Positions 51,565-56,255 of a stretch of 64,000 nt of DNA are shown here, piece after piece; position 1 is the first letter of the stretch; every line of letters begins with the position of its first letter. The translations under genes were made by a program, and so were the position numbers. Under the pieces are notes generated by a model. It ran no database searches. It had not been told where the DNA came from and saw nothing but the letters and a program-made list of their open reading frames with translations. This DNA is from an uncultured Candidatus Binatia bacterium. GTDB taxonomy: Bacteria; Desulfobacterota; Binatia; UBA9968; CAXXLF01. The DNA is taken from NCBI GenBank assembly GCA_965218425.1, contig OZ244621.1:64001-128000 (forward strand), in the 5' to 3' direction.

Positions 51565-52683
51565 ATGGCAATTGCACTCTCGCACGGTGGATCAAATATT
51601 TACTCCTCATCATCACGATCCGACGAGCTTCTGGTTGGAACCAAGGAAGGTGTCGTTATTCTAAAACGGGGTTCCAGTACCCAGTGGGATGTGGCGCACC
51701 GCGCCTTGCCCGACCAGTTTATCAGTTCTATTATCATAGAGCCCGACAGCAAGACCATCTTCGCCGGCGCCTTCTATGGCACAGTGCACGCCAGTACGGA
51801 CGGTGGCAGAACTTGGCAGCGGCGGGATAACGGCCTGACGGTGCATGATGTCTATAGCCTGGCCTCGGTAAAGTTGAACGGCAAGGTTCGAGTCTATGCA
51901 GGGACAGAGCCCGCCCACCTTTTTTACAGTGAGGACCTGGGTCACCATTGGACAGAATTACCGTCCTTGAGATCCGTACCCAGTACACCCCAGTGGAGCT
52001 TCCCTGCCCCACCACACATCGCGCACACAAAATTCATCACTTTTGACCCTCTCAATCCCGCCAAGATGTATGTCTGTATCGAACAGGGCGCCCTATTGGC
52101 CAGCGATGATGCCGGTCAGAGCTGGAAGGAACTCAATACTGTTGGATTTTACACCGATAAGAATCGCCCGCTGGAGCATTTCTACGACGTTCACAAGGCA
52201 ATGATCCACCCGCACGATCCTAAAAGAATATTTGTGAGCGGTGGCGCTGGCCTGTACGTTAGCGCTGATGGGGGTGGCCATTGGGAGCGATGGACCAGCC
52301 CGGATTGGGCCACAGACGTCTATCCTGACGGTCTCGTCCTCAACCCAAACCAACCGGACACCATGTTTGTTTCAGCCGCAGAGCACAATCCTCGCACCTG
52401 GCGTGAGGGCAAAACCCCCGGCCATGCCGGGACGCGAATATATCGTACCATTGACGGCGGGCGCACCTGGAAAATACTAGGCGACGGGCTGGCAGACCGG
52501 ATGAAGCACGAAGCCGGGGCGTTATGTCTGGAGAGCCATGGAGAGTCGTTCTCAGTCTTTTTTGCAACCACTGGAGGCGATCTCTATTGCACTGAGGATG
52601 GCGGAGATCACTGGTCTTTAATTAGTAGCGGCTTGGCGCCCGTTTCGAAAAAAGGGCATGAGCGCCTATTGAGAACGGCGTAG
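51565..52683 (+). CDS. BNR/Asp-box beta-propeller protein (Ycf48-like)
   Basis: Repeated S/T-x-D-G-G-x-T/S-W boxes; no signal peptide. Confidence 0.85.
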   Translation: MAIALSHGGSNIYSSSSRSDELLVGTKEGVVILKRGSSTQWDVAHRALPDQFISSIIIEPDSKTIFAGAFYGTVHASTDGGRTWQRRDNGLTVHDVYSLASVKLNGKVRVYAGTEPAHLFYSEDLGHHWTELPSLRSVPSTPQWSFPAPPHIAHTKFITFDPLNPAKMYVCIEQGALLASDDAGQSWKELNTVGFYTDKNRPLEHFYDVHKAMIHPHDPKRIFVSGGAGLYVSADGGGHWERWTSPDWATDVYPDGLVLNPNQPDTMFVSAAEHNPRTWREGKTPGHAGTRIYRTIDGGRTWKILGDGLADRMKHEAGALCLESHGESFSVFFATTGGDLYCTEDGGDHWSLISSGLAPVSKKGHERLLRTA

Positions 52684-52955
52684 TACCAATTCGCGGCGTA
52701 GGTCACTTGGGAATGGGGCGTCTAACCAGCCTAGAAAATCTGCTTCACTTCGCTCTTCCTCGGGCTCATCAGCAGCGCTAACCACTGCCTCTGATTCGCA
52801 AAGTTTTTCCTGCTCCGGTTCTGTCTCCTCAAAAAGCCGTTCCATGGCCTCCCTCCCCTTGAGGCCTTCCATCTCGATCTTGAGGCGAAGGTTGTTGGTG
52901 CTGTCCGAGTGGGCTAGTGCCTGTTCCAAGCCGATCTTTCCCTCTTTAGTAAAGC
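52666..52955 (-). pseudogene. PilU/PilT retraction ATPase C-terminal fragment
   Basis: KEGKIGLEQALAHSDSTNNLRLKI resembles the PilU C-terminus; no upstream ATPase domain. Confidence 0.6.
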
Positions 52956-53273
52956 AACACGGCGTGATCAAAGGTCCGGCATCCCTCATGGATACCTTGT
53001 TCCATGGCTTCCTTCAGGACATCCACCTCACCATTTCGAATCAAGTTCTTTTATAATTGCGGAGCCCGGGTTGGGAAGAAACAATGATATTTTGTTGGGG
53101 CAAAAATTTCCCGATCTGTTTCTTCGAATATTCTCGGTCGTTTGCCGTAATCACCCAACGGCCTCACTTCCCCCCCAAACCTTGACCTAGTCTCTACTCT
53201 CATAGATACTTCCAATTGAAGCACTGCAGGAAGACAGATCCCTGTCTTCCTGCTTAATTTCACGGGCTCGCCC

Positions 53274-53714
53274 TTGGAAAATCATCAGGAAATAGGACCA
53301 CGGGTCATGATCCAGCAGGTTTCTCAGGTTGCCGGCTCATCCCCTCACCTCTGGGTCGTGGCTTGGAACATCCAGAACGCTGGAGACCAACCGCTGCAGA
53401 TCCTAAATGCACAGTGCCCCCATGGTCGATTTCGAGCCGGCAGGGTAGAGCTTGCCGATTACCCAGAGCTAATGCCCGGTAAAAGCACACGCCTTGAGCT
53501 TGCGGTCACGTGCAAGGAGCCACCCGGCACTGTCGTGGAGAATACTTTTTTGATCCTCCAGGCCAAGTGGCGGAATCAACTCTGGCGGATATTGACTCGA
53601 CTGACCATGACCTTTGACCAACAGGGTGCCCCAAATGGATTCACCGAGGTTATCACAACGCAGTCCGTCGGGTTCTCCAAGGGAATGGGAGGGAGTGAAG
53701 ATCCCCTAGACTAG
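53274..53714 (+). CDS. Hypothetical protein, probable beta-sandwich
   Basis: 146-aa ORF with alternating beta-strand patterns and a CPH motif; stop overlaps the RBS of the next gene. Confidence 0.65.
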   Translation: MENHQEIGPRVMIQQVSQVAGSSPHLWVVAWNIQNAGDQPLQILNAQCPHGRFRAGRVELADYPELMPGKSTRLELAVTCKEPPGTVVENTFLILQAKWRNQLWRILTRLTMTFDQQGAPNGFTEVITTQSVGFSKGMGGSEDPLD

Positions 53715-53726
53715 GAGGGAATCCCA

Positions 53727-53948
53727 ATGCCGATGAATAACGAAGAAAAAACCATTCTGCAAAAACTGCGTGGCTGACATAACAACTGAGGCCTCGGCTT
53801 CGAAGAGACCACGGGTATGGTCTCCAACAGTCTCAATGTGGATCTGCAGGAATTGCTCAAGAAGTTGCAACGAATCAAGCGGGAATACGGTAAGAGCGCT
53901 GAGTTTCAGGATTGGCGAAAGCAAGTCCCCAAGGACTGGCCCATCTAA
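53727..53948 (+). CDS. Putative small selenoprotein with two in-frame UGA (UxxxU), 73 aa
   Basis: AGGAGGG RBS 53713-53719. MPMNNEEKTILQKLRG-U-HNN-U-GLGFEETTGMVSNSLNVDLQELLKKLQRIKREYGKSAEFQDWRKQVPKDWPI*. TGA at 53775 and 53787; SECIS-like hairpin downstream. Confidence 0.75.
53805..53824 (+). promoter_or_regulatory. Candidate bacterial SECIS element
   Basis: Perfect 7-bp stem GAGACCA/TGGTCTC with G-rich loop CGGGTA; loop starts 22 nt after the second UGA and 34 nt after the first. Confidence 0.6.
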
Positions 53949-53969
53949 TTCCTTAAGATTAAGGATACT

Positions 53970-54737
53970 CTACAAGCCAGGGACGTCGGGTAATCGAACC
54001 ACGGGTTGCCGCACTTGGAGGCGGGATACCCCCGCCCAGAATTCTCGCTGTCTGGTCATGGCCTGAACGTGTCCATCCCACTCCAGGGTAAACGCGGTTA
54101 CCCCCAGTTTGACGGCACTTCTGACCTTTTCCTGTGTTACTGCATCCGTGGCAAATCCCCTGAGCGCGTCAATCTGGCGTCTGCCATGGGAATCGTCCTG
54201 TTCGGCATGGAGTCGGTAGGTTTCCGCCGCATGTGCTGGGAACTTATAATACCCCGTCAGTTCCCTGTACACCTTTGCGGCAACACCGTTGGTTCCACCA
54301 TGCTGACTCTCCACGAAGCTAAGCATGGCGATGCCTTCCAATGCCGAGCGTCGTTGACAGCAGCCGGTGAGCATCTCGATGGCAGCCATGGTCCCTGGCG
54401 TCGGTTCCGCCGAGTCAGCCTCTTCCCGCGCGATACCACCCTCCTCGAGGAACTGGAGTAACACATCGGCATGACTTTTGGGTCCGGACAGTTCTTCCAT
54501 GAAGTTCTCAAGCACCACATCCATGGGTCCGTAGTGTTTTTCGGCCACAGCGTTGATGGCAATGTAACCGAAGAAAATAGCATTGGTGCGAACCCGTAGA
54601 TAGTGCTGAACCTCGCCGAGGATAATCTGCTGACGGGTCCAACGGTGTTGAATGATACCCTGAAACCAAGGGTGTTGTTCCATGGGTACCTCTCGGGCGT
54701 AACTCCAAAGCTCATCTATGAATTGATCTGAAGACAT
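53970..54737 (-). CDS. Heme-oxygenase-like (TenA/PqqC/CADD) iron-containing redox enzyme
   Basis: HPWF, ENFMEEL..SHAD, ESQ, YRLHAEQDDSH diiron-type ligand pattern. Confidence 0.8.
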   Translation of the reverse strand: MSSDQFIDELWSYAREVPMEQHPWFQGIIQHRWTRQQIILGEVQHYLRVRTNAIFFGYIAINAVAEKHYGPMDVVLENFMEELSGPKSHADVLLQFLEEGGIAREEADSAEPTPGTMAAIEMLTGCCQRRSALEGIAMLSFVESQHGGTNGVAAKVYRELTGYYKFPAHAAETYRLHAEQDDSHGRRQIDALRGFATDAVTQEKVRSAVKLGVTAFTLEWDGHVQAMTRQREFWAGVSRLQVRQPVVRLPDVPGL

Positions 54738-54821
54738 GGACCTAACCTCCTTGAGAGAGCAGCCGAGAAGCCGATTGCTCATCCCATTCTCGGTAAACGA
54801 CCCTCCTGATGGAAGCGAGCT

Positions 54822-55433
54822 TCAGGGTATTTCCATTCCGCGCCGCACTGCAGGACGATTGCCCATGGCCCTGAACCATCGATGGACGTTGGAAAATTCC
54901 TCCAGCCGGACCTGGTGCCACTCGAAGTGAGCCACCCAGGGGTAGGTGGCGATATCGGCGATGGAATAATCGTCCACAAGAAATTCCACTTGTGCGAGAC
55001 GCTTGTCCAACACGGTGTAGAGCCGTCTGGTTTCTTTGCTGTAGCGCTCGACGCCATACGCGACTTCCGCTGCGTGCCGTATAAAATGATGAGCCTGACC
55101 GAAGATCGGACCCACACCGCCCATCTGAAACATCAACCATTGAATCACATGGTATCGTTTCTTTGTTCCCCTTGGTAGCAGTTGATTGGTCTTGTCTGCT
55201 AGATACATTAGGATCGCTCCGGATTCGAACAGCGGGTAGGGTTTCCCGTCAGGTCCTTCACGATCGACGATTGTTGGGATTTTATTGTTTGGGTTCAGCT
55301 CCAGGTACTCCGGCTCAAATTGTTCTCCCTTGCCGAGGTTGATGGGATGAACTTCATAGGGCAGGCCCACTTCCTCAAGCATAATGGAGACTTTTCGTCC
55401 GTTAGGTGTCTTCCAAGAATAGAGATCGATCAT
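54822..55433 (-). CDS. Glutathione S-transferase, YfcG/Nu class
   Basis: TPNGRKVSIMLEE, NPNNKIP, FESGAIL, QWLMFQMGGVGP. Confidence 0.92.
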   Translation of the reverse strand: MIDLYSWKTPNGRKVSIMLEEVGLPYEVHPINLGKGEQFEPEYLELNPNNKIPTIVDREGPDGKPYPLFESGAILMYLADKTNQLLPRGTKKRYHVIQWLMFQMGGVGPIFGQAHHFIRHAAEVAYGVERYSKETRRLYTVLDKRLAQVEFLVDDYSIADIATYPWVAHFEWHQVRLEEFSNVHRWFRAMGNRPAVRRGMEIP

Positions 55434-55445
55434 AAAAGAAATCCC

Positions 55446-56255
55446 TTAAGTTGAAAGAAAATTCAAAACCTTCTCACAAAAAATTTTTCTAACATCCCAC
55501 ATCAACAGATGAGCGGCACCATCGATCACCTCCACCCGAAGGTCTGGTTCTTTTTCTTTTAGAATGGCGCACCTCTTGGCGGCAGACCCACGATCCTGAG
55601 CGCCATAGAGCATGAAAAGCGGAGCCGATACCTCCGTTAGGCGCTGGGACAGCGGGATCTGGCCCTTTTGTGATTCACGCGCCTTCAACCGCTCAAGTGA
55701 CGCCTCAAAATTTTTTCCCAGACTCATTTCATGTCTCTGTCGCAAGACCTCGGGAGTAATGAGGTCTTTGTTATAAAGGTTGCCTTCCAAAAGCCTCCTC
55801 GTATCCTCCAGGGTTGGCGAGGCTTGGGTCCCTTCCTCTCCCTGCGCTGGACCCCCACCCCCTTGATCCGTTAACCGGGGGAGGAGACTGCCTGTACCAA
55901 CCGTCACCACCTTAATGACGCGATCAGGATGCTTCAATGCCAGCCCCATGACAAATCCTCCCGCTTGCGAGTGGCCGATCATGGAGGCCTGCCGGATCCC
56001 AAGGACATCCATGAATTTAACAACAAAGGCTTCCCTGTAGGAAGGTCGGTAGTCTTTTGGATTATCGGAATGACCGTAGCCGGGTTGGTCATAGGCAATA
56101 GCGCGAAACCCGCCCTGAGCCAAGGCGCCCAACGTATCCTTCCAAACGTCAGCGGAAGAGCCCAAGGATGCGCCATGAAGTAACACCACGGGTGTGCCGG
56201 AGCCTTGCTCCAAATATCGGATTTTTAATCCATCAACTTGAAGAGAGTTTTCCAT
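55446..56255 (-). CDS. Alpha/beta fold hydrolase
   Basis: LLHG, DQPGYGHS, GHSQAG, GAQD, AAH. Confidence 0.9.
   Translation of the reverse strand: MENSLQVDGLKIRYLEQGSGTPVVLLHGASLGSSADVWKDTLGALAQGGFRAIAYDQPGYGHSDNPKDYRPSYREAFVVKFMDVLGIRQASMIGHSQAGGFVMGLALKHPDRVIKVVTVGTGSLLPRLTDQGGGGPAQGEEGTQASPTLEDTRRLLEGNLYNKDLITPEVLRQRHEMSLGKNFEASLERLKARESQKGQIPLSQRLTEVSAPLFMLYGAQDRGSAAKRCAILKEKEPDLRVEVIDGAAHLLMWDVRKIFCEKVLNFLST

Follow-up and report, generated by a model that had tools for sequence, protein, structure and literature searches.

A candidate double-selenocysteine protein with a UxxxU motif, encoded beside the gene for a diiron oxidase of the heme-oxygenase-like type in a Candidatus Binatia bacterium

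The stretch analysed here (the window) comprises 64,000 nucleotides from the genome of an uncultured Candidatus Binatia bacterium, hereafter the host (GenBank assembly GCA_965218425.1, contig OZ244621.1, positions 64,001 to 128,000), and all coordinates are counted from its first letter. Within the window, 73 codons interrupted by two in-frame TGAs lie between a gene for an ApaG-like protein and a convergent gene for a diiron oxidase of the heme-oxygenase-like type (HDO), as listed in Table 1. From the letters alone, a preliminary description had deduced a hidden gene with a ribosome binding site, an ATG start codon at 53727, two internal TGAs and a TAA terminator at 53946-53948, and a check of the sequence found all these elements in place. 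Both TGAs are covered with 0 differences by contigs of two sequencing runs from two studies (X2 and X4), either of which may itself be the source sample of the host sequence. Public databases mostly hold, instead of the 73-aa gene, a C-terminal fragment of 43 aa starting at Met31, and no paralog of the gene was found within the host genome.

Table 1. Features of the locus in window coordinates, with the evidence for each.
Feature	Position	Strand	Evidence
Sigma70-like site upstream of the two-gene unit	53182..53210	+	Consensus match only
ApaG-like immunoglobulin beta-sandwich protein, about 146 aa, start uncertain	53274..53714	+	Structure model; no Pfam/NCBIfam family
Shine-Dalgarno AGGAGG, overlapping the stop codon of the upstream gene	53713..53718	+	Sequence
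Candidate double-selenocysteine gene, 73 aa, U17-x-x-N-U21	53727..53948	+	Sequence, TGA conservation, predicted four-helix HTH-like bundle
UGA1 (Sec17)	53775..53777	+	TGA in 93/93 distinct genes; Cys in 22 full-motif homologs
UGA2 (Sec21)	53787..53789	+	TGA in 93/93 distinct genes; Cys in 22 full-motif homologs
H1, 6 bp, variable 4-nt loop, UGA2 in 5' arm	53787..53802	+	Pairing conservation; putative role in shortening the spacer
H2, putative bacterial SECIS hairpin of 7 bp with the loop CGGGNA (-9.2 kcal/mol)	53805..53824	+	Conservation in 93 genes
HDO (PF14518), 255 aa, convergent	53970..54737	-	Profile match, ligand motifs

The sigma70-like site is a weak one, since two such sites occur in 3 kb against 1.6 expected by chance. 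Between it and the ApaG-like gene lies a perfect inverted repeat of 12 pairs (53226-53253), which could attenuate or stabilise the transcript. Further upstream, a 107-aa ORF on the minus strand (52666-52989) has no significant Pfam or NCBIfam match and is probably a remnant, the N-terminal half of which presumably resembles the C-terminal tail of PilT/PilU. An Rfam scan of 52500-55500 gave nothing meaningful, and the same was true of PADLOC run on six proteins of the module. Directly upstream of the HDO gene, both in the host and in one further genome (G001), a YfcG-like glutathione-dependent disulfide oxidoreductase is encoded (54822-55433, minus strand); it is not among the recurring neighbours elsewhere and is a possible local source of electrons.

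In the host, TGA is an ordinary stop codon, as had been proposed from the use of TGA by other genes of the window: 589 of 1734 long open frames terminate with it, and a genome-wide reassignment of UGA can be ruled out. In several homologs, TGA also serves as the final stop of the 73-aa gene itself. The host possesses the selenocysteine (Sec) machinery, with selB, selA, a TGA-containing selD and the tRNA-Sec gene located within 11 kb, and the lack of these genes that the preliminary description had named as a ground for doubt is thus not observed. Among the 49 genomes found to carry the 73-aa gene, selA is present in 47, and in the remaining two (G021 and G047), both fragmented assemblies, selA and selB were not found and tRNA-Sec is present. 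Likewise, selA was detected in all 24 carriers picked for their non-Binatia labels, in 23 of them above the cut-off (one genome, G374, is flagged as unpublished). The sequence that follows the UGA of the host selD does not fold into a canonical G-loop hairpin, unlike the hairpin H2 of the 73-aa gene.

The conservation of the two TGAs has been followed at two scales. In a set of 61 genomes, which includes the host and spans three families of one order, the gene was matched in 49, and all 49 matches have both TGAs. A broader scan of GTDB, with a search pattern that left out the UGA positions, returned 233 candidate stretches, 216 of which were confirmed as loci of the 73-aa gene, so that at least 216 GTDB loci are on record; TGA occurs at both positions in each of the 80 examined (the best 80 of the 216). 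The labels of these 80 loci are mainly Binatia/Deltaproteobacteria and Chloroflexota (19/80), with scattered others that are possibly mislabelled. None of 300 genomes sampled from across the phylum yielded the gene, the distribution of which is therefore restricted to one order plus other lineages. Altogether, 110 loci collapse to 93 distinct genes, referred to below as the Sec clade, which show no indels and are of equal length from residue 7 to the stop. Synonymous differences among codon pairs for the same amino acid amount to 51% in the N-terminal part, 54% in the C-terminal part and 17% in codons 22-33; both flanks of the UGAs thus evolve as coding sequence, the hairpin region downstream of them is under an extra constraint, and the loss of conservation 3' of the UGAs that had been envisaged as a warning sign is not seen. 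No viral relative was confirmed among 40 pattern matches, and no fused form of 234-2000 aa was found, which is weak evidence, lengths of 147-233 aa being covered only by the profile search. One metagenome-assembled genome (MAG) has two copies of the gene (L036 and L038), with a transposase-like ORF replacing the HDO gene downstream of L036; mixing of bins is possible in this case.

A profile search gave 125 matches. Of the 30 homologs fetched, 22 have a CxxxC motif exactly at the UGA positions and the other eight are fragments, as would be hoped for from the proposal to look for cysteines at both sites; Trp, Arg or Gly, the residues suggestive of a decaying gene, were never seen, the homologs carrying either TGA or Cys at both sites. 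Those with a named source are annotated as hypothetical proteins and come from a Chloroflexota bacterium and, among archaea, from Heimdall-, Hod- and Thorarchaea, Thermoplasmata, Marsarchaeota and Sulfolobales. One homolog (P0180) bears the JGI label 'ferredoxin', which was rejected because the protein has only two Cys, and an ESM Atlas search with another (P0068) gave no usable match. Over their whole length, the profiles of the Sec and Cys forms can be aligned with each other (hhalign probability 99.8, E 7.6e-29). In a tree of 91 rows and 67 columns, the Sec genes form a single branch with support 100/100, within which the Cys/Cys protein of Chloroflexota is nested.

As regards the signal for Sec insertion, the preliminary description had placed the loop of a hairpin (H2) 34 and 22 nt past UGA1 and UGA2, respectively, and these distances are exact. 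H2 is present in the minimum free energy structure of all five windows folded; its energy alone is within chance in four of them (z -0.1 to -0.4) and stands at z -2.9 in the fifth. Hairpins of this sort are frequent, as 289 TGA sites of the host genome pass a similar filter combining hairpin, open frame and context, and a de novo SECIS scan of this genome was too noisy to list its selenoproteome. Conservation is more informative than energy, given that each pair of H2 is kept in 92-93 of the 93 genes, the loop CGGGNA in all 93, and an energy of -8.5 to -9.2 kcal/mol in 92. The codons that make up the hairpin are fixed (GAG 93/93, ACC 93/93, ACG 87/87, GTC 92/92), and their usage elsewhere in the same genes is 0.65, 0.28, 0.58 and 0.46, respectively. 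A value of -7.5 kcal/mol is reached by 3.6% of random synonymous codings and by 4 of 59 windows of the Cys clade. The search for covariation proposed earlier gave no compensatory (two-sided) change in H2, the support for which comes from frozen synonymous sites. For both UGAs, H2 agrees with the published bSECIS model (PMC13188914), the comparison having been made feature by feature. Around 53794-53847, assemblies of public runs are interrupted and accumulate precisely at the H2 segment of 30 nt, because many members of the community share it, which is an independent sign of conservation at the nucleotide level; the loose assembly ends at this site show further UxxxU variants.

A second hairpin, H1, holds UGA2 in its 5' arm. 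Five of its six pairs can form in 93/93 genes and the sixth in 89/93, with one C-G to G-C swap, and its codons are nearly invariant (GGC 67/68, GGC 76/76, TTC 91/93). The loop of H1 departs from the rule for bSECIS loops, neither hairpin has convincing covariation, and part of the conservation of H1 could stem from constraint on the protein. A decoding model can nevertheless be sketched, in which SelB bound to H2 would decode both UGAs. With UGA1 in the A site and H1 folded, the path of 27 nt to H2 would become 9 nt plus H1 plus 2 nt, a length comparable to the approximately 15 nt that separate UGA2 from H2; H1 would then melt while UGA2 is read.

The reading of the UGAs as Sec is lifted above chance by the conservation of both TGAs (49/49 and 80/80), the hairpin alone being insufficient. 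The hidden gene with a UxxxU motif put forward in the preliminary description is borne out by the conservation of TGA or Cys at both sites and by the conserved flanks. From this comparative evidence, we estimate at roughly 95% the probability that the 73-codon frame represents a new family of double-selenocysteine proteins, and the frame is very likely translated as a protein of 73 aa with two selenocysteines one helical turn apart. A sceptic might regard the locus as a decayed gene, as a case of UGA read in a different way, or as a real 43-aa protein translated from Met31, pointing to the fragment called in the databases, to the abundance by chance of SECIS-like hairpins and to the two carriers in which selA and selB were not found; however, a gene of this kind would hardly display a TGA invariant at both sites across phyla, Cys aligned at both sites in full-length homologs and an N-terminal segment evolving like coding sequence, in a genome where TGA terminates hundreds of long frames and in a family where it terminates several of the homologs. 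We consider the absence of Sec from this protein highly improbable.

The protein belongs to no family that could be assigned, as had been anticipated: Pfam and NCBIfam (June 2026), searched with the protein and with an alignment of 39 members, gave no match near any cut-off, and the best match in a PDB sequence search had E 0.19. An AlphaFold2 model of the Cys-substituted sequence (pLDDT 88) has helices at residues 5-21, 25-36, 40-54 and 58-64, and this predicted four-helix, HTH-like bundle supports the helical character suggested before. Since helix 1 comprises residues 5-21, Sec17 and Sec21 would both be placed on it, one turn apart. Between them, Asn20 is kept in 90 of 93 genes and His18 in only 38 of 93, so that a soft-metal site involving the intervening His was not upheld and His18 has been rejected as a metal ligand. 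The companion proposal of a diselenide redox switch is plausible.

The closest structural matches of the model are HTH domains, namely MntR (Z 6.5, rmsd 4.2, 62 aligned) and DesR (Z 5.8, rmsd 1.8, 49 aligned), and the topology of residues 1-58 is like that of the tri-helical HTH regulators of the MntR/DtxR, LuxR/NarL and sigma-4 types. These matches, together with the position of the Cys-clade protein at the head of its gene string (see below), raise the question of whether the 73-aa protein might regulate transcription of the HDO module as a sensor of redox state or metal. Several features set it apart from such regulators. The Z values are low, as Z <8 is unspecific for a small helical bundle, and no Foldseek match had E <= 0.001; the net charge spans -7 to +6 among the proteins of the Sec clade and has a median of -2 in those of the Cys clade; the presumptive recognition helix opens with acidic residues, position 42 being E/D in about 90% of both clades. 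Moreover, no operator was found, in that a simple palindrome and 8-mer scan of 65, 51 and 29 upstream regions revealed no shared palindrome (best 6, 6 and 3). A regulatory function is, in our opinion, improbable.

The ApaG-like gene adjoins the 73-aa gene in 78 of 80 bacterial loci, the other two lying at contig ends, and the model of its product (pLDDT 92) has Vibrio cholerae ApaG as the best match (Z 10.4, rmsd 3.3, 108 aligned). Extra ORFs located 1.6-3.3 kb upstream in four loci (L071, L102, L105 and L110) cluster with the ApaG-like family by BLAST and are either paralogs or chaining artefacts. The HDO gene adjoins the 73-aa gene in 72 of the 80 loci, in convergent orientation; of the eight loci without an adjacent HDO, two are at contig ends. 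As for the corresponding eight genomes, four hold an HDO (one of these being the neighbour of the second gene copy and one, in G361, being flagged as unpublished), and none was found in the other four, which are fragmented MAGs. HDO is kept in G039 even though it has moved about 60 kb away. Other neighbours of the bacterial loci vary by lineage. The ApaG-like gene and HDO are both present in 49/49 carrier genomes, and among the 12 non-carriers the ApaG-like gene occurs in none, selA in 11 and HDO in one, as a fragment with its 3' end off the contig; the three bacterial genes are thus present or missing together. It should be considered that one deletion can remove adjacent genes at once and that related genomes are not independent. 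In several bacterial loci (L036-L115) a recurring pair of -35/-10-like elements just before the HDO start suggests that this gene has its own promoter, a pair not seen in the host. The host genome has at least 12 HDO/TenA-like paralogs in 4.5 Mb, an unusually large set.

Of 62 bacterial HDOs, 61 retain the ligand motif E-x6-H, 56 the E and 61 the H-x3-D-x2-H motif. Among solved structures, the bacterial HDO is most closely related to CADD, a 4-aminobenzoate synthase (PDB 1RCW, E 1e-8), all six metal-ligand positions of which align with it. The numbering of the CADD ligands used for this alignment is assumed, and we take the sacrificial residues of CADD to be Tyr27, Tyr43 and Lys152. In the bacterial HDO these three positions are occupied by Phe, Gly and Val, and its score against TIGR04305 is 49.7 with a cut-off of 200. 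A role of the neighbouring HDO in the synthesis of p-aminobenzoate (PABA) was rejected in view of these replacements.

The affinity with CADD, an enzyme that attacks protein side chains, suggests another relationship between the two gene products, in which the 73-aa protein would be the substrate of the HDO, its Sec/Cys pair undergoing oxidative modification or being sacrificed, for instance in the making or release of a cofactor that contains selenium or sulfur, and the ApaG-like protein presenting it. The HDO is without the sacrificial residues of CADD, and a substrate acting in trans is therefore conceivable; the strict pairing of the 73-aa gene with HDO is also in keeping with it. Yet the predicted product is a folded, indel-free bundle and not a precursor with leader and core, and the neighbourhoods contain no recurring protease, exporter or tailoring enzyme, which makes this relationship distinctly unlikely.

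An HDO gene also accompanies the Cys homologs. The context of the Cys clade was established on 80 of 121 metagenome loci, selected by the Cys pattern, the contigs of which are unlabelled, an archaeal origin being deduced from the named homologs. Directly downstream and on the same strand, a gene for an HDO with a zinc finger is found in 73 of the 80 loci, and in 67 of the 69 with at least 600 nt of downstream sequence; Ta0938 follows in 49 of the 54 with at least 1500 nt. The conserved string thus consists of the CxxxC protein, a zf-C2H2_9 plus TenA/HDO protein of the 4LQX family, and Ta0938, bringing together two orphan structural-genomics families in one operon. The profile of the Cys-clade HDO matches the TENA/THI-4 domain protein of PDB entry 4LQX (E 7.5e-125), hence a solved structure exists for this partner family. 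We take 4LQX to be SSO2700 of Sulfolobus solfataricus, and a literature search for a function of this protein found none. The 4LQX-family HDO differs from the bacterial one by its N-terminal zinc finger and by the loss of one His ligand, the first of the HxxxDxxH motif (1/34 match), and may therefore not hold the same cofactor. The two groups of HDOs are distant (hhalign probability 91.6, E 8e-7), a search of the host genome with the profile of the Cys-clade HDO places the bacterial neighbour only 8th among 12 HDO-like genes, and an HDO tree built by a quick method did not settle whether the two partner clades share a common origin; the link is therefore to the superfamily and not demonstrably to one orthologue. 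Even so, given about a dozen HDO genes in 4.5 Mb, we infer that adjacency to HDO in both clades is unlikely to arise by chance.

The composition of the Cys-clade operon bears on a further interpretation, according to which the double-Sec protein would be a metal carrier or buffer, with its i,i+4 selenolates (alone or across a dimer) binding Fe, Zn or a toxic soft metal, so as to load or protect a labile HDO centre without cycling electrons. The predicted i,i+4 pair on one helix would suit this purpose, the operon adds Cys-rich modules (the C2H2_9 zinc finger on HDO, and Ta0938 in the loci mentioned above), and HDO cofactors have been described as unstable (PMC7848743). However, no third ligand near the pair is conserved in both clades, His18 being variable and position 22 differing between them, and no metal-efflux or resistance gene is among the annotated recurring neighbours. 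Metal handling is possible but unlikely.

We regard as an even bet the proposal that the 73-aa protein is a dedicated two-electron redox partner of the adjacent HDO. It was chosen because the Sec/Cys pair is the only evident chemistry of the protein, because the gene is strictly accompanied by that of an enzyme requiring re-reduction, and because a precedent exists in MboB, which has been called possibly the first dedicated HDO redox partner (PMC13185094). In addition, the 2026 catalogue considers the majority of prokaryotic selenoproteins to be redox proteins (PMC13188914). According to this proposal, Sec17 and Sec21, on one face of helix 1, would alternate between a selenol and a diselenide state (in the Cys clade, between thiol and disulfide) or bind an iron, and would re-reduce the oxidised dimetal centre of the HDO after turnover of O2 or peroxide, with the ApaG-like protein acting as an adaptor. 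Points against a partner role include the statement of an HDO review that no protein effector is required by the HDOs examined to date (PMC13108848), the convergent orientation of the bacterial HDO, which is therefore not co-transcribed with the 73-aa gene, and, as described above, the distance between the two groups of HDOs, the missing His ligand of the Cys-clade enzyme and the carrier genomes in which no HDO was found.

If the proposal is correct, the family would provide a candidate natural reductant for HDO enzymes, for which a dedicated redox partner was first described as late as 2026, as well as a functional handle on the orphan structural-genomics protein 4LQX and on Ta0938. It adds to the selenoproteome a family represented in databases by no more than a stub of 43 aa, and a spacing absent from the 2026 catalogue; the Cys versions in named Sulfolobales species are open to bench work. 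Furthermore, it constitutes a compact natural test case of a bacterial ribosome inserting two Sec four codons apart, which matters for recombinant proteins with multiple Sec. A tentative and bolder synthesis, which we would not press, would see in the 73-aa protein the first partner of the HDO superfamily that is a selenoprotein, with an HTH fold turned into a diselenide electron shuttle for a diiron oxidase and paired with HDOs as CxxxC in archaea and as UxxxU in bacteria. Its mRNA would use a new way of decoding, in which the burial of UGA2 in a hairpin allows a single SECIS to act on both UGAs, 12 nt from each other.

With respect to known systems, MboB, the redox partner of the HDO MboA, shares with the 73-aa protein the proposed role of a co-inherited dedicated reductant; MboB is a one-electron NAD(P)H/flavin/Fe2S2 reductase (PMC13185094), whereas the only evident redox group of the 73-aa protein is its Sec/Cys pair. 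In DtpC of Acinetobacter baumannii, an HDO-like domain can limit the accumulation of H2O2; its abstract mentions no small Sec/Cys partner (PMC13232832). By analogy, an antioxidant job for the 73-aa/HDO module is possible. Among selenoproteins, no UxxxU is present in the 2026 table of 119 prokaryotic families, and the accessible text that accompanies it does not contain 'UxxxU', 'heme oxygenase' or 'TenA' (PMC13188914); similarly, no such family is shown in the available part of the deep-Sep paper (PMC12013277). BSepDB searches only with known families (PMC13326102), and its genome list includes Binatia (11 rows). No description of a UxxxU/CxxxC family was found in the open literature, subscription papers and BSepDB data being outside the search. 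The bacterial two-Sec proteins of the catalogue have UxxU (the Prx-like PF00578, the metal-binding protein NF041115 and FmdB TIGR02605) or UxxxxU (TsoB NF045694), with MbdU NF045648 as a further case (PMC13188914). They share with the 73-aa protein two in-frame UGAs, a SECIS inside the coding region, Cys homologs and a small size; the 73-aa protein differs from them in the spacing of the two Sec, in its predicted all-helical fold, which is neither thioredoxin nor rhodanese, in the lack of an NCBIfam match, in the second hairpin that buries UGA2 and in the link to HDO. The principle of decoding is a known one, and the family, the UxxxU spacing, the tandem hairpin and the association with HDO appear to be new.
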